DNA of 64,000 nt from Nanobdellota archaeon (GTDB lineage Archaea; Nanobdellota; Nanobdellia; Woesearchaeales; JAHIVG01). Both the position numbers and the translations under genes were made by a program. Positions within the stretch are counted from its first letter, which is position 1. The number at the start of each line of letters is the position of its first letter. Below are positions 1 through 35,433 of the stretch, piece by piece. Below the pieces are notes generated by a model. It saw only the letters and a list, made by a program, of their open reading frames with translations. It searched no databases and was not told where the DNA came from. Location of the stretch: assembly GCA_018816705.1 (NCBI GenBank), contig JAHIVG010000079.1, positions 8,064 through 72,063 on the forward strand, written 5' to 3'.

Positions 1-588
1 ACCCAAAAGCTTTACCCTTCCAGGCTTGACCTCAAAGATCTCCCCATCCCTCAGCAGGGACTCCAGGATGCTGTCAGCATCAGACATGCCAGCGGCCTTC
101 ACGAGCTCCTGAGAGTCGACACCATCTCCCTTGTCCATGTCCTTGATCAGCTTAAGCAGGGTCTCAGCATTGCCGATGCCTTCCTCAGCAGCTTCCTTCT
201 TGTCCGTCTTGGTCCGGCCCTTCAGCTCCAGCCTTCTCAGCTCCACCCATTTCGTGCTGGCCAAAGGCTTCATTATCTCCGAGGCCAGGAACCGCTCGCC
301 GTTGAACTCTCTCGGGCGGCCGATCACCAACACCGGCGTGCCGACAGCCGGGATGTCCAGGCCCTTCTCGAAGAACCTGAGGGGCAACAGGCCGGTCCCG
401 TCATCAAGCGTGCAGGCGTTCTCTGCCCGGTCGACCACCATGCCGATGACGTTTATCCTCGACACCTTGGTAGCATCACCCAGCAGCAGGTAATTGGGCT
501 CCCAACCCTCTTCCTCGCGGTAGTCAGAAGATAATACGCTGCTGATGTCCAGCTTGACCGCCACGAGGCGGGACTGTGTTGTTGCCAT
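1..588 (-). CDS. OB-fold nucleic-acid-binding protein (RPA-like), partial. The C-terminus runs off the window start.
   Basis: Minus-strand ATG at 586-588; translation MATTQSRLVAVKLDISS...NYLLLGDATKVSRINVIGMVVD...DDGTGLLPLRFF... is OB-fold-like with an acidic/winged-helix-like tail. It sits directly upstream of MCM. Not in the ORF track because it is truncated by the window edge. Confidence 0.45.
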   Translation of the reverse strand, partial: MATTQSRLVAVKLDISSVLSSDYREEEGWEPNYLLLGDATKVSRINVIGMVVDRAENACTLDDGTGLLPLRFFEKGLDIPAVGTPVLVIGRPREFNGERFLASEIMKPLASTKWVELRRLELKGRTKTDKKEAAEEGIGNAETLLKLIKDMDKGDGVDSQELVKAAGMSDADSILESLLRDGEIFEVKPGRVKLLG

Positions 589-596
589 GCATTCAC

Positions 597-2627
597 CTAA
601 ATCTTTGATATGAAACCGTGCCTGGGCTCGAATATGTCGCCTGAGCGCTTGAGCTTCTCCACGGCCTCCTCGACCTTGTCATCAGAGATGCCCTTCTCTG
701 CCGCCATCCTGATCACGTCGTCGATAGGTATGGTCTTGCCGAGCTGTTCCTCCAGCTCAGAGATTATCTCCTTGATCGTCACTATCTTGCCCCGCTCGGT
801 AGCTGGGATGCCAGTGGTTATCCTATCGATGTCTATCTTGCCGGTCTCCGGGTCGATACCTATCTGGGACAGGCAGTAATGCAGCAGTTCAACGCCGCGC
901 TTGGCATCTCTCTTTGTGACTTTGCTGCTCATGCGCATCTTGGCAGCGCCTTCTGAGAGCCTGATCATGGCCTCGAGCTGCCTCGGGCTTATGGGAACTG
1001 CCCTTATCCCCCCCTCCCCAGCGCTCATGTTCCTCATCTTGAGGTAATACTCCTTGATCTCGCTCAAGGCGCCGTCTGTCAAGACAGGATGGATATTCTG
1101 CCTCGCATAAGCGATATACTTCTTTAGGAGTTTAGTGGGTATCTCAGGCTCATCCACATCAGGGTGCTGGTGGAGGTTAAGGATGTGAGAGGCCATCTTC
1201 TCATCCATCTCCACGTCAGGAAGGTCCTTCATGGGAAAGATGAGGTCGAAGCGGTTGATCAGCGTGGGCGGCAGGTCGATCTGGTTGGCGAGTATATCAT
1301 AAGGGTCGAACCTTCCAAGCTTCGGGTTTGCAGCTGCGAGTACCGTAGTCCTTGCGATGAGCGTTGCCTGGATGTTGGCCTTGCTTATGCTGACGGTCTG
1401 CTGCTCCAGGGCCTCGTGCATCGCGGCCCGGTCCTCCGTACCCATCTTGTCGAACTCATCTATGCAGCACACGCCGTTGCTGGCCAAGACCAATGCGCCG
1501 GCCTCGAGGCTCCACCCCTTGAGGAACTCATCCTTGACCACGCTGGCAGTGAGACCTGCCCCACTGACACCCTTGCCGCTAACATACCTCGACTTAGGGG
1601 CAACCAGGTTCATCCGCTTGAGCAGCTGGGACTTGCCCGCCCCAGGATCCCCCACAAGCAGGATGTGCATATCACCCCTGGTTATCATGCCGTCTGCCCG
1701 CACCTTATGCACACCCCCGACGAGCTGGAGAAGCAGGGCCTCCTTGATCTTGCTGAAACCATAGATTGATGGAGCAACGGAATTCACAAGGCGCTGTACA
1801 CACTTCGGGTCTGAAGCTATCTCCTTTATCTGCGCCTCTTCCTCAGATGAGATCTCGATGTTATAGTAGTCCTCTGCAGCGGTCTCAACACAGTTGGCGT
1901 CTATCAACAGATCGAACCGGGTGGACTTGGTACCCCTATGAGAGATTATCGGTACTTCCTTGACCTGACCGGTCAGTATTATCTTGGTGCCCGGGTTGGT
2001 CTTCTTCTCTGACAGCGGCGAGACCAGGTCATTCTTCAAGAAGACATTCATCCTCTTCGGCTGCTCCCCGCCCTCGAGGTCTTCGGGAGCCTCCTCAATG
2101 ACCAATCCCTGAGCATCGACCAGTTCTTTGGAGAGGAGCTTGAACTTGCCCTTCCTGCCGCAGCTGCACCTCGTCGGCTCCTTCCATGATGAGTCGACCT
2201 GTATGATCGGGATGACGTTGCCGCAGCTAGGGCACTCGAACCTGGCATTGGTAACTTGCGGCCTCACCTCGCTCTTCTGCCGGACAACACCCTCAACCGA
2301 AAGGAGCTTATTGATATGGCTGCTCCGGATATTCCTGATGAGGATGGAAGAGGACTGAGGAAGGTTCCTGAACCTGACATGAAAACGTTTTAAGTCAGCA
2401 GGGAGGTCGAACTGCAGCACGGCGAGCTCTGCCGCCTTGAAGGCCTCTTCAGGCTGCTCAAGCAGCTCCTCAGCCAGTCCAGGGTCGAACCTGGACAGTT
2501 CGGAGAAGTCCACCACCAGAAACTTATCCCCCTTCCTCACCTGTTCAAGGAGCTTGGTCTGGTAATAGTTCTCCATGAATTCCTTGAATTTTCCTATCTG
2601 CTCGGTAGCGTCCATCCAGCCCACCAT
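597..2627 (-). CDS. mcm: Minichromosome maintenance helicase MCM
   Basis: 676 aa with a C4 zinc finger (CPSCG...CSCG), Walker A GDPGAGKSQLL, Walker B CIDEFDKM, an arginine finger (SRFDLIF) and a C-terminal winged helix. Confidence 0.95.
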   Translation of the reverse strand: MVGWMDATEQIGKFKEFMENYYQTKLLEQVRKGDKFLVVDFSELSRFDPGLAEELLEQPEEAFKAAELAVLQFDLPADLKRFHVRFRNLPQSSSILIRNIRSSHINKLLSVEGVVRQKSEVRPQVTNARFECPSCGNVIPIIQVDSSWKEPTRCSCGRKGKFKLLSKELVDAQGLVIEEAPEDLEGGEQPKRMNVFLKNDLVSPLSEKKTNPGTKIILTGQVKEVPIISHRGTKSTRFDLLIDANCVETAAEDYYNIEISSEEEAQIKEIASDPKCVQRLVNSVAPSIYGFSKIKEALLLQLVGGVHKVRADGMITRGDMHILLVGDPGAGKSQLLKRMNLVAPKSRYVSGKGVSGAGLTASVVKDEFLKGWSLEAGALVLASNGVCCIDEFDKMGTEDRAAMHEALEQQTVSISKANIQATLIARTTVLAAANPKLGRFDPYDILANQIDLPPTLINRFDLIFPMKDLPDVEMDEKMASHILNLHQHPDVDEPEIPTKLLKKYIAYARQNIHPVLTDGALSEIKEYYLKMRNMSAGEGGIRAVPISPRQLEAMIRLSEGAAKMRMSSKVTKRDAKRGVELLHYCLSQIGIDPETGKIDIDRITTGIPATERGKIVTIKEIISELEEQLGKTIPIDDVIRMAAEKGISDDKVEEAVEKLKRSGDIFEPRHGFISKI

Positions 2628-2686: not shown

Positions 2687-3301
2687 TCACTTCGTAGCTT
2701 TCTTCAGGTTCTCTACGAGCTTGTCCAGCGCCTTATGCACCTCTTCCTCACTCTTGGTGCCGGTGCACACAATCTTCCCGTTGCTGAACAACAGGAACGT
2801 CGCCTTGGCTTCGGGCAGCTTGTATACCAGGCCTGGGAACTGCTCTGGCTCATATTCAGTGTTATCCAGTTTCATGGCCAGCACGTTAAGGTTAAGGGGC
2901 ATGCCCACGCTCCCTGAGGCAACAATGTTCTGGATCTTGATATCAGGCTTAATGGTTATCTTGACGTTTATCTTCTCAAGGCTCTTGATTATCTTCTTAA
3001 TAGACTCCTCGACCTTGTCCATGGATCGCGCGCCCGTGCACACAATCTTACCAGAGCTGAAGATCAAGGCAGAAGTCTTTGGTTCCTTTATCCTTATGAC
3101 CAGGCCTGGGAACTGCTCAGGATTGTACTCTGTGTTGCTGAGCGTCGCCGCCATCTTCTCAAGCGGGATGTCATGCCCGAGTGAAGTACTTACAACAATG
3201 TTAACTACTTGAATCTCCTTCTTCCACACCTTCAAATCCTTCTTCAAATCCTTCTTGGGTCCCTTCTTGGCTACCTTTTTCGGCATGAGTGACACCTCCA
3301 C
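2687..3301 (-). CDS. tbp: TATA-box binding protein, with a Lys-rich N-terminal extension
   Basis: Two direct TBP repeats (NIVASGSVGMPLNLNVLA...QFPGLVYKL / NIVVSTSLGHDIPLEKMA...QFPGLVIRI). The N-terminus is MPKKVAKKGPKKDLKKDLK. Confidence 0.93.
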   Translation of the reverse strand: MEVSLMPKKVAKKGPKKDLKKDLKVWKKEIQVVNIVVSTSLGHDIPLEKMAATLSNTEYNPEQFPGLVIRIKEPKTSALIFSSGKIVCTGARSMDKVEESIKKIIKSLEKINVKITIKPDIKIQNIVASGSVGMPLNLNVLAMKLDNTEYEPEQFPGLVYKLPEAKATFLLFSNGKIVCTGTKSEEEVHKALDKLVENLKKATK

Positions 3302-3391
3302 CCCTTGTTTTTAAATGGAGAAGCATAACTCCTTTATAAATACTTTTATTTTTAAATAGGGGCTTTATAAGCTATATCTTCAAGGATTTCA

Positions 3392-3417
3392 GCCACCTTG
3401 ATTTCCTGTGGAAACCC
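3392..3417 (-). promoter_or_regulatory. ORB-like element 1 (mini-ORB-like dyad TCCACAGGAAA with a weak G-string), read on the minus strand
   Basis: Plus strand reads tttcctgtggaaac at 3402-3415. The minus strand reads TTTCCACAGGAAATCAAGGTGG. Confidence 0.4.
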
Positions 3418-3473
3418 GGTTTCCGCCTTTTCCAAGGCTCTCCAGGGGCAGCAGTATACATAAATCCTCAAAA

Positions 3474-3501
3474 CACACCCCCCTGTTTCCTGTGGAAACC
3501 C
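3474..3501 (-). promoter_or_regulatory. ORB-like element 2 (TCCACAGGAAAC + G-string), read on the minus strand
   Basis: The minus strand reads GTTTCCACAGGAAACAGGGGGGTGTG. This is the dyad TCCA-N2-GGAAAC followed by GGGGGGT, matching the archaeal origin recognition box as I recall it. Confidence 0.5.
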
Positions 3502-3530
3502 TGGAAACATTAATTTTATTAAGCAATACA

Positions 3531-5144
3531 ATGATTTCGGAGCCAATGGCCACCTATTCCCTGTTCGGCAAGCCCATATCCGGCCCATTCACCATACCTT
3601 CAGGCATAGTCATGACCGAGGTGCCGGTCCTTGAGCGGATAGCCAACGAGATACCAGAGATCGGCATCCTCACAACCAAGAGCATCGGGCCAGAGCCCAA
3701 GGAAGGCAACCGCGAGCCGATATTGGCCCAGTATACGCCGTTCTCGTTCATAAACGCTGTGGGCCTGGCAAACCCGGGCTGCAAAGAGTTCGCTGAGAGA
3801 CTTAAGAAAGCGAAGATTCCCAAAGATAAGTTCCTGCTCGCATCAATCTTCGGCAGTACAGAACAGGATATCAAACACGTTGCCGGAACCCTTGTCAGTC
3901 TCGTGGATGGCTTCGAGCTCAACATATCCTGCCCGCATTCCAAGCGCTACGGGCAGGCCTGCGGCCAGGACCCGGAGCTGGTAGAGAAGCTTACCCATAC
4001 AGCTGCTTCCTTCGGAAAACCGGTCGTTGTGAAGATATCACCCAATCTAGACATGGAGACAACCATCAAAGCAGCGCTCGGAGGAGGGGCTCGGGGCTTT
4101 GTAGCCATAAACACCAAAGGCCCAACAGAGTTCAAAGTAGACGGGCACGATGTGCTGAGCAACAAACAAGGCGGGGTGTCAGGCAAAGCCATACTCAACC
4201 TTGGTATAGCCTGCGTGAAGAAGATAAGGCATCTGACAGACAAGCCCATAATCGCCTGCGGCGGAATCTCAACCGCAGAAGACATCAAACGATACAAGAA
4301 AGCCGGCGCAAGCTTCTTCGGCATAGGGTCAGCCCTGGCAGGGATGAATACGTCAGAGATGAAACTGTACTTCAAGGCCCTGAAGGGGGATTTTGAGACA
4401 GGCAGTGATGCTGCGCCAAGACATTTGAAGGAAACCAACATGAAATATGTCAAGTTCAAGATAGCAGAGAGGAGGCAGCTCGCAGACAACCTAATCCTGC
4501 TGAAGCTGGACAAGAACTACGACATCCAGCCCGGCCAGTTCATATTCGCCTGGATACCCGGAAAGGGAGAGAAGCCCTTTGCCATATTCGACGACGAGCC
4601 GGCCACACTGCTGTTCAAGCCGAGAGGGCGGTTCACAGACGAGCTGGCAAAGCTTAATCCAGGAGACCCATTATATATAAGGGGGCCGTACGGCAACCCG
4701 CTCAAGATACGAGGCAAGGCATTACTGGTGGTGGGGGGAACTGCGGTGGCCGCCCTTCACCTGCTCGCCAAAAGGAAACCAGACACGTGCCTGCTGGTGG
4801 GAGGGGAGGACAAGAAGCACCTCTCGTTCCTCAAGGAATTCCCGCTGGCATGCAAGGAAGTCAGCTGTGTCTCCGACGACGGAAGCTACGGCGAGAAAGG
4901 ACTGGTGACAGACATACTCGAGAGGCATATGCTCGCATTCAAGCCAGACATATGCATCAACTGCGGCCCTGAACAGATGCAACAGAAAGCCATCGAGATA
5001 GAGAAGAAGCACATCAAGCCAGAAAACATCCTGTCCTCCATAGAATACCAGACCATGTGCGGCAACGGCATCTGCGGACGGTGCGCAACACCGGCCGGGG
5101 AGAGGAGCTGTGTGGACGGGACGTTCTTCCCTTTGAAACACTAA
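3531..5144 (+). CDS. pyrD: Dihydroorotate dehydrogenase class 1B catalytic domain fused to its electron-transfer subunit (PyrD-PyrK in a single ORF)
   Basis: The N-terminal ~300 aa are a DHODH TIM barrel (GLANPG, NISCPHS, IACGGISTAEDI). The C-terminal ~250 aa are the PyrK FAD/NAD-binding fold with a 2Fe-2S Cys cluster (QTMCGNGICGRCA...SCVDG). The ORF is continuous with no stop between the domains. The ORF track starts at 3408, but a Met at 3531 (MISEPMATYS) fits better. Confidence 0.85.
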   Translation: MISEPMATYSLFGKPISGPFTIPSGIVMTEVPVLERIANEIPEIGILTTKSIGPEPKEGNREPILAQYTPFSFINAVGLANPGCKEFAERLKKAKIPKDKFLLASIFGSTEQDIKHVAGTLVSLVDGFELNISCPHSKRYGQACGQDPELVEKLTHTAASFGKPVVVKISPNLDMETTIKAALGGGARGFVAINTKGPTEFKVDGHDVLSNKQGGVSGKAILNLGIACVKKIRHLTDKPIIACGGISTAEDIKRYKKAGASFFGIGSALAGMNTSEMKLYFKALKGDFETGSDAAPRHLKETNMKYVKFKIAERRQLADNLILLKLDKNYDIQPGQFIFAWIPGKGEKPFAIFDDEPATLLFKPRGRFTDELAKLNPGDPLYIRGPYGNPLKIRGKALLVVGGTAVAALHLLAKRKPDTCLLVGGEDKKHLSFLKEFPLACKEVSCVSDDGSYGEKGLVTDILERHMLAFKPDICINCGPEQMQQKAIEIEKKHIKPENILSSIEYQTMCGNGICGRCATPAGERSCVDGTFFPLKH

Positions 5145-6793: not shown

Positions 6794-7581
6794 AGTTCGC
6801 AATCATAACCGACATCCATCTGGGTCCGGAAGGCCATCATAAAGGAGTTCTACGAAAGATGAATAAAGATGTAAAAATATATTTGGATAATTTTGTCAAA
6901 GAAATGAACAATAAAATAAAACCCGAATTTGTAGTTGTTCTGGGCGATCTGATTGAACAGGATAACAAAATCAAAGACAAGGAACATATCAATTACATAG
7001 TTCAATTGCTGAAGAAGCTAAGGTGCACTGTTTATTATGTCGCAGGAAATAAAGATTTGAAAAATATCTCTGAAGAGGAACTTTCAAAATTATTCCATCA
7101 AAAGAGCTTATATTACGCATTTGATTCAGGCAGATTTCATTTCATAGTCTTGTTTTCAAAAGTATCTGAAGATAGGACCAGTTGGGTTGAGGGTGAACAA
7201 AAAATATGGCTACAAAAAGAATTGGACACGACCAATAAAAAATGTGTGGTGTTTGTCCATCATGGGTTGGCTGACCAAGACCTAACAGGAAATCCCTGGT
7301 TCGAAGGGATGCCTGAAAACTGCCTCATTGCAAACAGGAAAGATATCAGAAATATTATTTCTACATCAAATAAAGTCATTGCAGTGTTCAACAGCCATCT
7401 GCATTGGGATAAACAGCACATCCATGATGGTGTCCCATATTTTTCAATCCAATCTTTGGTTGAAAATGAAGCTGATAAAGGAATGGCAAGTGAAACACAC
7501 GCAGTAGTCAATATTGTCAACGATAAGGTCGATGTTGAAGTAAAAGGCAATCATCCTAAAAAAATTCTCACATCAATATAA
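6790..7581 (+). CDS. Calcineurin-like metallophosphoesterase
   Basis: DIHLG..., GDL, GNKD, VHHG and NSHLH motifs. It lies in an AT-rich segment. Confidence 0.7.
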   Translation: MKFAIITDIHLGPEGHHKGVLRKMNKDVKIYLDNFVKEMNNKIKPEFVVVLGDLIEQDNKIKDKEHINYIVQLLKKLRCTVYYVAGNKDLKNISEEELSKLFHQKSLYYAFDSGRFHFIVLFSKVSEDRTSWVEGEQKIWLQKELDTTNKKCVVFVHHGLADQDLTGNPWFEGMPENCLIANRKDIRNIISTSNKVIAVFNSHLHWDKQHIHDGVPYFSIQSLVENEADKGMASETHAVVNIVNDKVDVEVKGNHPKKILTSI

Positions 7582-7671
7582 ATAGGCATCCCGTCCGCCA
7601 GCTGCAAAGCGATAAAAAGGAAATTGCCTGCCTTACGATTATGCCTCCTTTTTTCTCAATGAATGGGCAGT

Positions 7672-8088
7672 TTATTTTTCTTCGTCAAATTTTCTAGAAG
7701 CTTCAATCCAATTACCCGATTCTTTAAATTTACATGAATCAATATAAAATGATTTTAATTTTGGTTCAATCATTGCATAAATCGTCTTTGCACCTTTTCG
7801 AAATGCCTCTTTACAAAATTTATCTACTAATTTTGTCCCTATTTTTTGTCCCCTATATTTTAAATCAATTCTCAATTCATGTATCAGGGCTTCATCGTTT
7901 TTAGTCGGCACAATAAAACCAGTGAGGTAACCAACCAAATTGTTATCTATTTCCACAACCAAGAAAATGGCATTCGTATTTTGTATGCAATTAAAAAAAT
8001 CTAATTTGGTCCAATAACTTTCATTTTCTTGTTTAGCAAGCTGAGTACAGTGATTTACATCTTTTATTGAAGCATTTCGAAAAAGCAT
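7672..8088 (-). CDS. GNAT family N-acetyltransferase
   Basis: The acetyl-CoA binding motif R/Q-x-x-G-x-G/A is present as YRGQKIGTKLV. The gene is AT-rich. Confidence 0.65.
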   Translation of the reverse strand: MLFRNASIKDVNHCTQLAKQENESYWTKLDFFNCIQNTNAIFLVVEIDNNLVGYLTGFIVPTKNDEALIHELRIDLKYRGQKIGTKLVDKFCKEAFRKGAKTIYAMIEPKLKSFYIDSCKFKESGNWIEASRKFDEEK

Positions 8089-8147
8089 AATATAATGGGG
8101 AAATTGGCACTATTATAAAGCTTTCTAATTTGGATAAAATATCTATT

Positions 8148-8678
8148 TCATCCCTTAATCCTTTCAACCAACTCACCAATCAAAGCCTTGGAATCAGATT
8201 CGAAGAAGACATTCTCTGCCTGGCCGCCCTTGTCGATCGCCTTCGATATCTGTGGAAGCAGTTCTGTCACAAATCCAGAGCCCTTCAGCACGCCGATGTA
8301 CTTCTCGTCGTCAAAGGCAACTGTGAATTTGTTGAGGGTGCCTGCCATGCCGGCGATTATCACGACAGCGTCGCAGCTCCTCACAAAGATGACGTTGCGA
8401 CCCTTCCAGCCGTGGCCGGTAAAGATTATGCTATCGAATGGCTCAACAGGCATGCCTAGCTCTTTGTGCTTCTCCCTGTTCGGGGCAGGGCTGATGCCAA
8501 TCACCAATCCGTCCTCGCTCCTCGCACCCTTGGCAGCAGCCAACGAAACTCCTGTTGTGGCACCTGTGAGAAGAACAACATCGCGTTTGGCGATTTCTCT
8601 GCCTATCTCGAAAGCCTTAGCCTCAGTCTCTTTTGATGTTTGTCCGGCCGAGCCGCACACACCGATAGAAGGTCTCAT
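8148..8678 (-). CDS. LOG/TIGR00725-type Rossmann-fold protein
   Basis: IGVCGSAG...LLTGATTG...VIGI...DAVVIIAGMAGTL pattern. Confidence 0.5.
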   Translation of the reverse strand: MRPSIGVCGSAGQTSKETEAKAFEIGREIAKRDVVLLTGATTGVSLAAAKGARSEDGLVIGISPAPNREKHKELGMPVEPFDSIIFTGHGWKGRNVIFVRSCDAVVIIAGMAGTLNKFTVAFDDEKYIGVLKGSGFVTELLPQISKAIDKGGQAENVFFESDSKALIGELVERIKG

Positions 8679-34362: not shown

Positions 34363-35433
34363 ATGGCACTGTTCAAGGATATTCTCGGCGCGGAAGAGAC
34401 ACTGTTCAAGAATCCTGTCGCGTTGGATCCGGACTTCATGCCCAAAGAGATACCCTATAGGGAGAACGAGCAGCACTATATCGCAGACTGCATCAAACCG
34501 CTGTTCAAGAAGAGGAACGGCCGCAACCTCATCGTCACAGGCGCGCCAGGCATAGGCAAGACAGCAGCGTGCAAGCACATCCTGCAGGACCTGGAAAAGG
34601 AGACAGACGAGATATACACTATCTACGTCAACTGCTGGAACAAGAACACCACGTACAAGATAATACTAGAACTCTGCGAGGCCTTAGGCTACAGGTTCAC
34701 ACAGAACAAGAAGACAGAGGAGCTCTTCGGGATAGTCAAGGGCATGCTGAACAAGAAGAGTGCAGTGCTGGTCTTCGACGAGATAGACAAGATGGAAGAG
34801 TTCGACTTCCTATACACATTCGTCGAGGAGATATACAGGAAGACCGTGGTGATGATCACCAACTACAAGGAATGGATCACTGATCTTGACCAGAGGATAA
34901 AGTCAAGGCTGATCCCCGACACGCTGGAGTTCAAACCGTACAAGCCAGGAGAGATAAGAGGCATACTCGAACAGAGGATGAAGGCAGCATTCTTCGACGG
35001 GATCTGGCAGGGAGAGGCATTTGACATCGTCGTCGAGAAGACGGCAGAGACGGGCGACGTCAGGACAGGACTGTTCCTGATGCGGGAGGCCGGAAGCGCA
35101 GCCGAGGAAGAGAGCAAGCGCAGCATAACAATCGAGCATGTCAAGAAGGCAACGTCGAGGATGCAGGGCTTCAGCATAAAGAAGGACTCTGAGCTGGAGG
35201 AGAGCACAAAGGAGATACTCGAGCTAGTCAAGAGCAACCCTGACATGCGCATCGGCGAGCTCTTCAAGAGATACCAGAAGGACGGAGGGGCCCTTACGTA
35301 CAAGAGCTTCCAGAGAAGGATACAGAAGCTGGCAGAGAACAAGTTCATATCGGTCAAGAAGCTCATGGGCGGCAAGGACGGCACGACCACGATCGTGAAG
35401 CCCTTCGAGCACAAGAAGCTGACGGAGTTCTAA
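34363..35433 (+). CDS. orc1: Orc1/Cdc6 replication initiator
   Basis: AAA+ fold with Walker A GAPGIGKTA, Walker B VLVFDEIDKM and a C-terminal winged helix. Confidence 0.92.
   Translation: MALFKDILGAEETLFKNPVALDPDFMPKEIPYRENEQHYIADCIKPLFKKRNGRNLIVTGAPGIGKTAACKHILQDLEKETDEIYTIYVNCWNKNTTYKIILELCEALGYRFTQNKKTEELFGIVKGMLNKKSAVLVFDEIDKMEEFDFLYTFVEEIYRKTVVMITNYKEWITDLDQRIKSRLIPDTLEFKPYKPGEIRGILEQRMKAAFFDGIWQGEAFDIVVEKTAETGDVRTGLFLMREAGSAAEEESKRSITIEHVKKATSRMQGFSIKKDSELEESTKEILELVKSNPDMRIGELFKRYQKDGGALTYKSFQRRIQKLAENKFISVKKLMGGKDGTTTIVKPFEHKKLTEF

Follow-up and report, generated by a model that had tools for sequence, protein, structure and literature searches.

The 64,000-nt stretch analysed here (the window; contig JAHIVG010000079.1 of a Nanobdellota archaeon, positions 8,064 to 72,063) contains two sequences that resemble archaeal origin recognition boxes (ORBs). 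Both are in a 244-bp intergenic region between the genes for the TATA-binding protein (TBP) and dihydroorotate dehydrogenase (pyrD). TBP (199 aa, 2687-3286, minus strand; Pfam TBP, E = 2e-64, the exact product on record) is transcribed away from the boxes, and 71 nt downstream of it is the MCM helicase gene (672 aa, 597-2615, minus strand; Pfam). On the other side pyrD (537 aa, 3531-5144, plus strand; Pfam) is divergent from TBP. ORB-A, the TBP-distal box next to pyrD, is GTTTCCACAGGAAACAGGGGGGT at 3477-3499 of the minus strand, or GTTTCCACAGGAAACAGGGGGGTG at 3476-3499 when taken as a 24-mer ending in G. It is built as GTTTCCACAGGAAAC-A-GGGGGGTG, with a GTTTCC/GGAAAC dyad and, toward TBP, a G-string. 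ORB-B, the TBP-proximal box, is (G)TTTCCACAGGAAATCAAGGTGG at 3393-3415 of the minus strand, and the whole box GTTTCCACAGGAAATCAAGGTGGC (3392-3415) is built as GTTTCCACAGGAAAT-CAA-GGTGGC. The two G-strings, GGGGGG and GGTGG, start 1-3 nt past GGAAAY. An identical 14-mer, GTTTCCACAGGAAA, is present in both boxes on the minus strand, with the starts 84 bp apart. An earlier note on this DNA had proposed the two elements at 3474-3501 and 3392-3417 and had called the second copy weaker. Both elements were found, at the slightly different positions given here, but the dyads are identical and intact and only the G-string of ORB-B is interrupted. The boxes are direct repeats in one orientation, and the note's caveat that an origin would carry inverted copies was apt.

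The boxes have the same architecture as the ORBs of Sulfolobus oriC1, Pyrococcus oriC and Aeropyrum ori1 (sites of Orc1-1/Cdc6-1), namely a TTCCA-NN-GGAAA dyad with a one-sided G-string. The euryarchaeal ORB consensus is GTTCCAGTGGAAAC-AAA-GGGGG (PMC1868953). The window boxes match 11 of the 13 positions of the euryarchaeal core TTCCAGTGGAAAC, with the mismatch confined to the central 2 nt, and they agree with the Pyrococcus ORB1-3 sequences (PMC1904270). The G-string is 3-4 nt from the dyad here, in contrast to about 8 nt in Pyrococcus ORB1/2. In the window the dyad core GTTTCCACAGGAAAC/T is present twice, and the composite pattern TTTCCACAGGAAAYNNNGGKG has two matches as against none in 100 dinucleotide-preserving shuffles. 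No further copy of the 14-mer was found in the 64 kb with two mismatches allowed.

TBP relatives place the window among metagenome-assembled genomes of Woesearchaeales/Nanoarchaeota (DPANN). We fetched 80 TBP loci from such relatives (individual loci are cited by L numbers); the whole sample, centred on TBP, cdc6 and a divergent cdc6 paralogue, came to 1.04 Mb. The motif was built from a dyad seed regular expression, which recovered 38 instances. In these instances the unseeded columns +17 to +20 were G in 76-81% (51% at +19, where A is the alternative), and the G-string of the relatives is at a fixed 3-4 nt from the dyad. The resulting position weight matrix, which was trained on TBP-upstream sites and may under-score ORBs at origins, had 75 matches of at least 17 bits in 1.04 Mb, while 0.6 were expected from block shuffles. 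ORB-A scored 31.0 bits, among the top of the 75 matches, and ORB-B scored 30.5 bits. Fifty-nine of the matches are at most 560 nt upstream of TBP and on the TBP strand, and one more is a palindromic re-read, so that 59 of 60 are on the TBP strand. The remaining matches are directly upstream of MCM (five), in cdc6-origin regions (nine) or elsewhere (one). ORB patterns of at least 33 bits matched just 3-10 known loci, and for looser patterns thousands of chance matches would be expected. Given the consensus match, the conserved unseeded G columns and the same motif at the inverted-ORB origins of relatives described below, both elements are very probably genuine ORB-type boxes, and the dyad plus G-string architecture proposed in the earlier note holds.

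The TBP-MCM gene pair was kept in 77 of the 80 loci. A box was found upstream of TBP, in the orientation of TBP, in 46 of them, and a box at either TBP or MCM in 51. The direct pair with 83-86 bp spacing recurs in about 12 relatives. The ORB-B of L001, the closest relative, is degenerate (12.5 bits). No inverted partner was found within 6 kb on either side in the 46 box-bearing loci, and around the window boxes the only inverted match that reaches 10 bits is the palindromic re-read. On the TBP side of the boxes is a conserved TBP promoter element with two TATA-like boxes, TTTAAAAATAAAAGTATTTATAAA (3333-3356, minus strand), which starts 58 nt downstream of the ORB-B start. In relatives this 24-nt double-TATA element reads TTTAAAAACAAAAGTATTTATAAA and was found with at most six mismatches in 59 of the 80 loci. 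Of 43 loci, 20 have the ORB exactly 44 nt from the element and 14 have it exactly 58 nt away (34 in all); the window is in the 58-nt class. This register holds across genomes of 32-61% GC. Across species the boxes thus have a constant place and direction with respect to the core promoter, as a promoter-linked operator would. The element itself is near-invariant: TTTAAAAACAAAAGTATTTATAAA is identical in genomes from about 32% to 43% GC, with 1-4 nt changes in the window (52% GC) and L001 (59% GC). Such constancy hints at autoregulation by TBP or at another bound factor.

In one sub-clade (L020, L021, L043, L051 and L064) there is no TBP-upstream box, and a single ORB is found upstream of MCM, with its G-string abutting the TATA box TATATAAC. 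In L051 the box remains with MCM despite genes inserted between TBP and MCM. Another clade (L012, L013, L023, L026 and others) has a single box at -235 and a conserved segment, GGGGGTGTTTTAGGGCTTAtTCAG, in a long TBP leader, at about -120 to -60 from the TBP start. This segment may represent an RNA element of the leader or else a short upstream open reading frame (ORF).

A contig of the same genome (L089), returned by a look-up of the exact TBP and MCM products, is identical to the window over 13,286 nt and reaches 8,063 nt past the window start. Its gene order is pyrD, the two boxes (ORB-A then ORB-B), TBP, MCM, an RPA32-like gene, SpoIIM, eIF5/2B, DUF424 and acylphosphatase, and it continues on the opposite strand with DP2, DP1 and then an ORC1-type protein. 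The ORC1-type protein (L089:19501-20678, about 8 kb left of the window start) is 391 aa long, 5'-truncated, and has a Cdc6 winged-helix domain. It matched 2qby_A (E = 2e-108) and 2v1u_A (E = 3e-97) over the full length including the winged helix, and is the Orc1-1 orthologue and canonical initiator. A cognate Orc1-1-type initiator is thus encoded in the genome of the window, and this cdc6, adjoining the PolD genes DP1 and DP2, is about 11.5 kb from the boxes. The order of the island is conserved in most of the 80 loci.

In relatives, the region upstream of this cdc6 looks like a textbook origin. L093 has a minus-strand ORB (28.8 bits), about 100 bp of A+T and a plus-strand ORB (30.1 bits). L094, from a 61% GC genome, has a minus-strand ORB (16.0 bits), a DNA unwinding element (DUE) and a plus-strand ORB (25.0 bits), and L091 and L092 show weaker versions of the same ORB(-)/DUE/ORB(+) arrangement. 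In L090, the closest relative, the contig ends within about 100 nt of near-pure A+T, which is followed by a 28.5-bit plus-strand ORB 55 nt before cdc6. L034 has a three-ORB origin adjoining the same TrmB gene. These canonical origins contain 100-180 bp of near-pure A+T even at 58-61% GC, and their dyads face the DUE, whereas the window dyads face away from the nearby AT-rich stretch. In three cases (L001/L090, L075/L091 and L094) a single contig holds both the cdc6 origin and a TBP-upstream box, with about 11 kb between them. The Woesearchaeales dp1 genes of the cdc6 loci scanned contained no ORB. Most likely, therefore, the oriC of the window's genome is about 11.5 kb from the boxes, upstream of the cdc6-DP1-DP2 (PolD) operon and just past the contig end.

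Two independent assemblies (L089 and L090:1-200) stop exactly at the cdc6 5' end or in the DUE upstream of it, and among the database entries for this Cdc6 family many carry a partial annotation at contig ends. It seems that short-read assemblies break at the real origin region. In one large Nanobdellota genome study, complete genomes were rotated to ORC1/Cdc6 by convention. The sole strong match outside TBP, MCM and cdc6 contexts in the sampled loci is an inverted ORB-like pair at L092:5258-5353 (16.6 and 19.6 bits, about 70 bp apart). This pair belongs to an AR20-like genome, is in or beside an HTH_40 gene and is separated from the cdc6 origin by about 4.7 kb.

Strand asymmetry was measured as orientation-averaged A/T at fourfold sites (AT4), the only version that behaved consistently. 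The plus strand of the window is A-rich at fourfold sites in both gene orientations over the 64 kb (AT4 +0.41 for plus-strand and +0.25 for minus-strand genes), and it is also G-rich on average at these sites. This suggests a genome with one dominant origin, with the whole window on a single replichore. Left of the boxes, MCM and a short plus-strand ORF (137-493, our own call) have the same polarity as the genes on the right, and MCM shares the T-over-A coding bias of the minus-strand genes right of the boxes. Since the polarity is equal on both sides, it does not flip at 3.4 kb. When the 46 box-bearing loci were pooled, AT4 shifted by -0.016 across the boxes (95% confidence interval -0.085 to 0.053). 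For the cdc6-upstream site, both flanks were available in four loci, and all four showed a positive shift (+0.14, +0.25, +0.18 and +0.15); the A-rich strand is the leading strand there. The polarity of the window agrees with an origin beyond its left edge. Regressions on third-position GC (GC3) and on GC skew that included a global term for the coding strand either failed to reach significance or were confounded by the codon bias of individual genomes. GC at fourfold sites (GC4) gave a small shift with the wrong sign for an origin, and the cumulative GC skew over 64 kb follows gene orientation and was set aside. Genes upstream of the boxes showed no divergence pattern (37 minus versus 35 plus).

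Taken together, this makes the boxes look less like an origin than like a switch under initiator control. Specifically, we give about an even chance to the reading that they are extra-origin initiator boxes which form one module with the TBP promoter (with that of MCM in one sub-clade) and modulate expression. The module would consist of ORB-A, about 60 bp, ORB-B with the G-strings toward TBP, 44 or 58 nt, the double-TATA element TTTAAAAAyAAAAGTATTTATAAA and TBP, with MCM and the RPA32-like gene downstream. We infer that Orc1 binds the window boxes: an Orc1-1-type initiator would do so with high affinity outside the origin, and the same protein that licenses oriC would also sit upstream of TBP. 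Occupancy of the boxes could then tune TBP transcription, and MCM transcription directly where the box abuts the MCM TATA in the sub-clade. In this way the level or nucleotide state of the initiator would be coupled to the supply of the helicase and a basal transcription factor, comparable to the coupling through DnaA boxes in bacterial promoters.

Several points weigh against this switch. All function in it is read from sequence, and the sampled loci are centred on TBP, cdc6 and the paralogue rather than spread genome-wide. Sixteen loci have the promoter element with no ORB, so the boxes are dispensable in some lineages. The boxes are 45-130 bp upstream of the TATA element, beyond typical archaeal activator or repressor sites, and the two spacing classes differ by 14 nt, a non-integral number of helical turns. 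In the window the TBP-MCM gap contains a T-run and a TATA-like TTTTAAAG; MCM may have its own promoter, and control of MCM through the TBP promoter is therefore uncertain. L089 ends 2 nt from the cdc6 start (the NCBI copy of this gene is likewise annotated as partial), and the position of oriC in the window's genome comes from relatives. The asymmetry tests used crude gene calls, a few kb per side, four origin loci and related genomes; their power is low, and they are supporting, not decisive.

Among the alternatives, a satellite or secondary origin element, in which the boxes take part in replication initiation, is the least unlikely, although we consider it only tentatively. It could be a weak or dormant second origin that unwinds at the AT-rich TBP promoter, or a distal cluster that loops to oriC 11.5 kb away. 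The box scores of 31.0 and 30.5 bits, compared with 14-30 bits at ORBs of canonical origins, would suit such an element, as would the location in a conserved replication island (TBP, MCM, the RPA-like gene, then DP2, DP1 and cdc6). In Pyrococcus, Cdc6 binds a second cluster of ORBs in vivo that is likewise outside oriC proper (PMC1904270). Next to ORB-B there is an AT-rich stretch, which the earlier note had placed at 3330-3365: A+T reaches 82.5% over the 40 bp that start at 3319, among the top 0.05-0.15% of windows. It is not unique, though, as about 15 other stretches of the window are similarly AT-rich. At the 80-bp scale the region beside ORB-B is 75% A+T (top 0.15% of the window) and is composed of TATA boxes. 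In L001, where ORB-B is degenerate at 12.5 bits, the equivalent stretch is about 60% A+T by reading of the sequence. A satellite origin also has to contend with dyads that point away from this stretch when canonical dyads face the DUE, with ORBs in one orientation and no inverted partner, with the lack of any asymmetry shift at the boxes, and with a quantised distance to the promoter element that would be needless for an origin.

A related possibility, which we consider improbable, is that the ORB pair and the TBP element form a transcription-coupled auxiliary site for initiation or MCM loading, acting with the oriC 11.5 kb off. This could work by Orc1-mediated looping across the conserved replication island, for example. 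The helicase gene would then be beside its own loading site, and TBP on the double TATA would help to open the DNA.

Alternatively, the TTCC-N3-GGAA dyad might be the operator of a transcription factor other than Orc1, though we rate this lower still. The core is palindromic, which is typical of dimeric regulators, and the register and orientation to the TBP and MCM promoters are fixed. But the conserved asymmetric G-string at a fixed distance is a hallmark of the contact made by the initiator-specific motif of Orc1, and in L034, L090, L093 and L094 this composite motif is also found on the flanks of the DUE ahead of cdc6. Since the identical motif is present at the cdc6 origins, a separate factor is unnecessary.

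The earlier note had proposed that the TBP-pyrD region is a replication origin, and it had named a skew analysis as a check. As the primary chromosomal origin this region is very unlikely. The ORB consensus match with an adjacent AT-rich stretch fits that proposal, MCM is next door, transcription diverges from the boxes, and both in the window and in five relatives the orc1 paralogue lacks an adjoining ORB or intergenic space. Nevertheless, the same genome has a canonical cdc6-PolD cluster 11.5 kb off, and relatives have their textbook origin upstream of cdc6-PolD on contigs shared with TBP boxes. Strand asymmetry, as partial evidence, points against the proposal as well: it is continuous across the boxes, the pooled shift is zero, and the upstream gene orientation is balanced (37 minus, 35 plus). 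Furthermore, the ORBs are direct repeats locked to a promoter, and no initiator gene is adjacent (cdc6 is 11.5 kb and the paralogue 31 kb away).

The note's other suggestion, an operator of the pyrimidine genes (pyrD and the nearby pyrBICEF cluster), is scarcely credible: ORB-A does end about 10 nt from a TATA-like box ahead of pyrD and the pyr genes are clustered at 3.5-12.5 kb, but pyrD adjoins TBP upstream only in the window and its closest relative L001, which removes this reading, while in 46 loci the boxes keep their place and direction relative to TBP although the upstream genes are unrelated, a box accompanies TBP or MCM in 51 of the 80 loci, and there is no box near the pyrB operon. 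As a conserved function this operator is refuted; a lineage-specific side effect on pyrD may still occur.

Compared with archaeal oriC ORBs, the window boxes are off the origin, are direct repeats, have neither an inverted partner nor a long DUE, and are locked to a promoter. They resemble a Thermococcales arrangement in having conserved ORBs outside oriC proper within a replication gene island: in Thermococcales a second ORB cluster is inside dp1, and the Pyrococcus copy is bound by Cdc6 in vivo (Matsunaga et al. 2007, PMC1904270). Looping of this cluster to oriC has been proposed for Thermococcales. The dp1 cluster is inside a coding sequence and within a 5-kb region together with oriC and cdc6, whereas the window boxes are intergenic, 11.5 kb away and in fixed register with the TBP promoter. 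Haloferax volcanii ori-pHV3 is an origin in the intergenic region between a TBP gene and orc6 (PMC1868953), and there too ORB-like repeats adjoin a TBP gene. Unlike the window region, ori-pHV3 is 793 bp long, with two DUEs, an adjacent orc gene and proven autonomously replicating sequence activity (PMC1868953).

For initiator sites that act away from origins, two systems offer comparison. Bacterial DnaA boxes are found outside oriC in the dnaA and nrdAB promoters and at datA. These are initiator sites in promoters of replication genes or at titration loci, and they link initiator status to expression; protein and motif are unrelated to those discussed here, and the analogy is functional only. 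In damage-response promoters of Sulfolobales, Orc1-2 recognises a short ANTTTC-type motif. It is a non-initiator paralogue, whereas the window carries full ORBs, identical with the origin ones, but it is a precedent for an Orc1/Cdc6-family protein at promoters. Orc1-2 has been described as an Orc1/Cdc6 paralogue that regulates transcription upon DNA damage (PMC6061795, PMC9738581).

Replication control in DPANN is essentially unstudied, and in the literature that could be searched we found no description of ORBs in Woesearchaeota or DPANN, nor of the TBP-box arrangement. The present analysis locates the likely Woesearchaeales oriC upstream of an Orc1-1-type cdc6-PolD operon, as in Thermococcales, and describes a second conserved set of full-strength candidate initiator boxes tied to the TBP promoter (to MCM in one sub-clade). 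If the switch is real, it would be an archaeal counterpart of the control of genes by the primary initiator through DnaA boxes, and in these organisms with minimal genomes the amounts of helicase and basal factor would be tied to the licensing of the origin. For automated origin finders there is a warning: a high-scoring ORB pair beside MCM need not mark the origin, and the true origin is just where assemblies tend to break.

The earlier note had put orc1 31 kb from the boxes. There is such a gene at 34363-35433 (plus strand, 356 aa, AAA+; Pfam), but it is a divergent Orc1/Cdc6 paralogue, 27% identical to the canonical Cdc6, which is encoded about 8 kb outside the window on the other side. The paralogue profile aligns to the winged helix, and the basic wing motif GRYGRT is lost and reads GGxEGxTT. 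Its neighbours are tightly packed with no intergenic space, and serS is upstream. No ORB was found beside it in the window or in five orthologous loci, and a metagenome scan with the Orc1 paralogue gave two loci only, both without an ORB. The paralogue is widespread in Woesearchaeota, with 1,589 proteins at E <= 1e-30 that are annotated merely as "AAA family ATPase".

The gene after MCM encodes a 196-aa protein (1-588, minus strand) whose stop is just beyond the window. The note had named an OB-fold/RPA-like protein along with MCM; the MCM assignment is sound, and the other has sub-threshold matches in the window (OB-fold, E = 0.024; RPA_C, E = 0.075). The orthologue in L094 (L094:17715-18383) matched the OB-fold with E = 8e-6, and the position of the gene is conserved in relatives. 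This protein of about 200 aa is possibly an RPA32-like partner (OB fold plus RPA_C) encoded with MCM.

Further elements were read around the boxes. Candidate extra half-sites with a 9-nt period, CCG GTTTCC GCC TTTTCC, are beside ORB-B (3416-3434, plus strand), and an additional GGAAAC is beside ORB-A (3503-3508); several relatives also show an extra upstream TTTCCA half-site. Just past ORB-A, ahead of pyrD, is the TATA-like ttaattttattaag (3509-3523). A weak third ORB-like match, TTCTCCATTTAAAAACAAGGGGTG (3299-3322, minus strand; 12.6 bits), overlaps a TATA-like box and the Shine-Dalgarno-like GGGGTGGAGGTG ahead of the TBP ATG. It is not kept as an ORB in relatives and is probably promoter or leader sequence. 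An Rfam scan of 3000-3800 gave no credible RNA family. In pyrD, the DHO dehydrogenase domain stops near residue 310 of the 578-aa ORF, and the C-terminal residues (about 230) have no Pfam match. Finally, there is a low-GC island at 6800-8200 (about 42% versus 52% overall), where several stretches of 75-79% A+T extend over the last part of a metallophosphoesterase gene and the intergenic DNA behind it.

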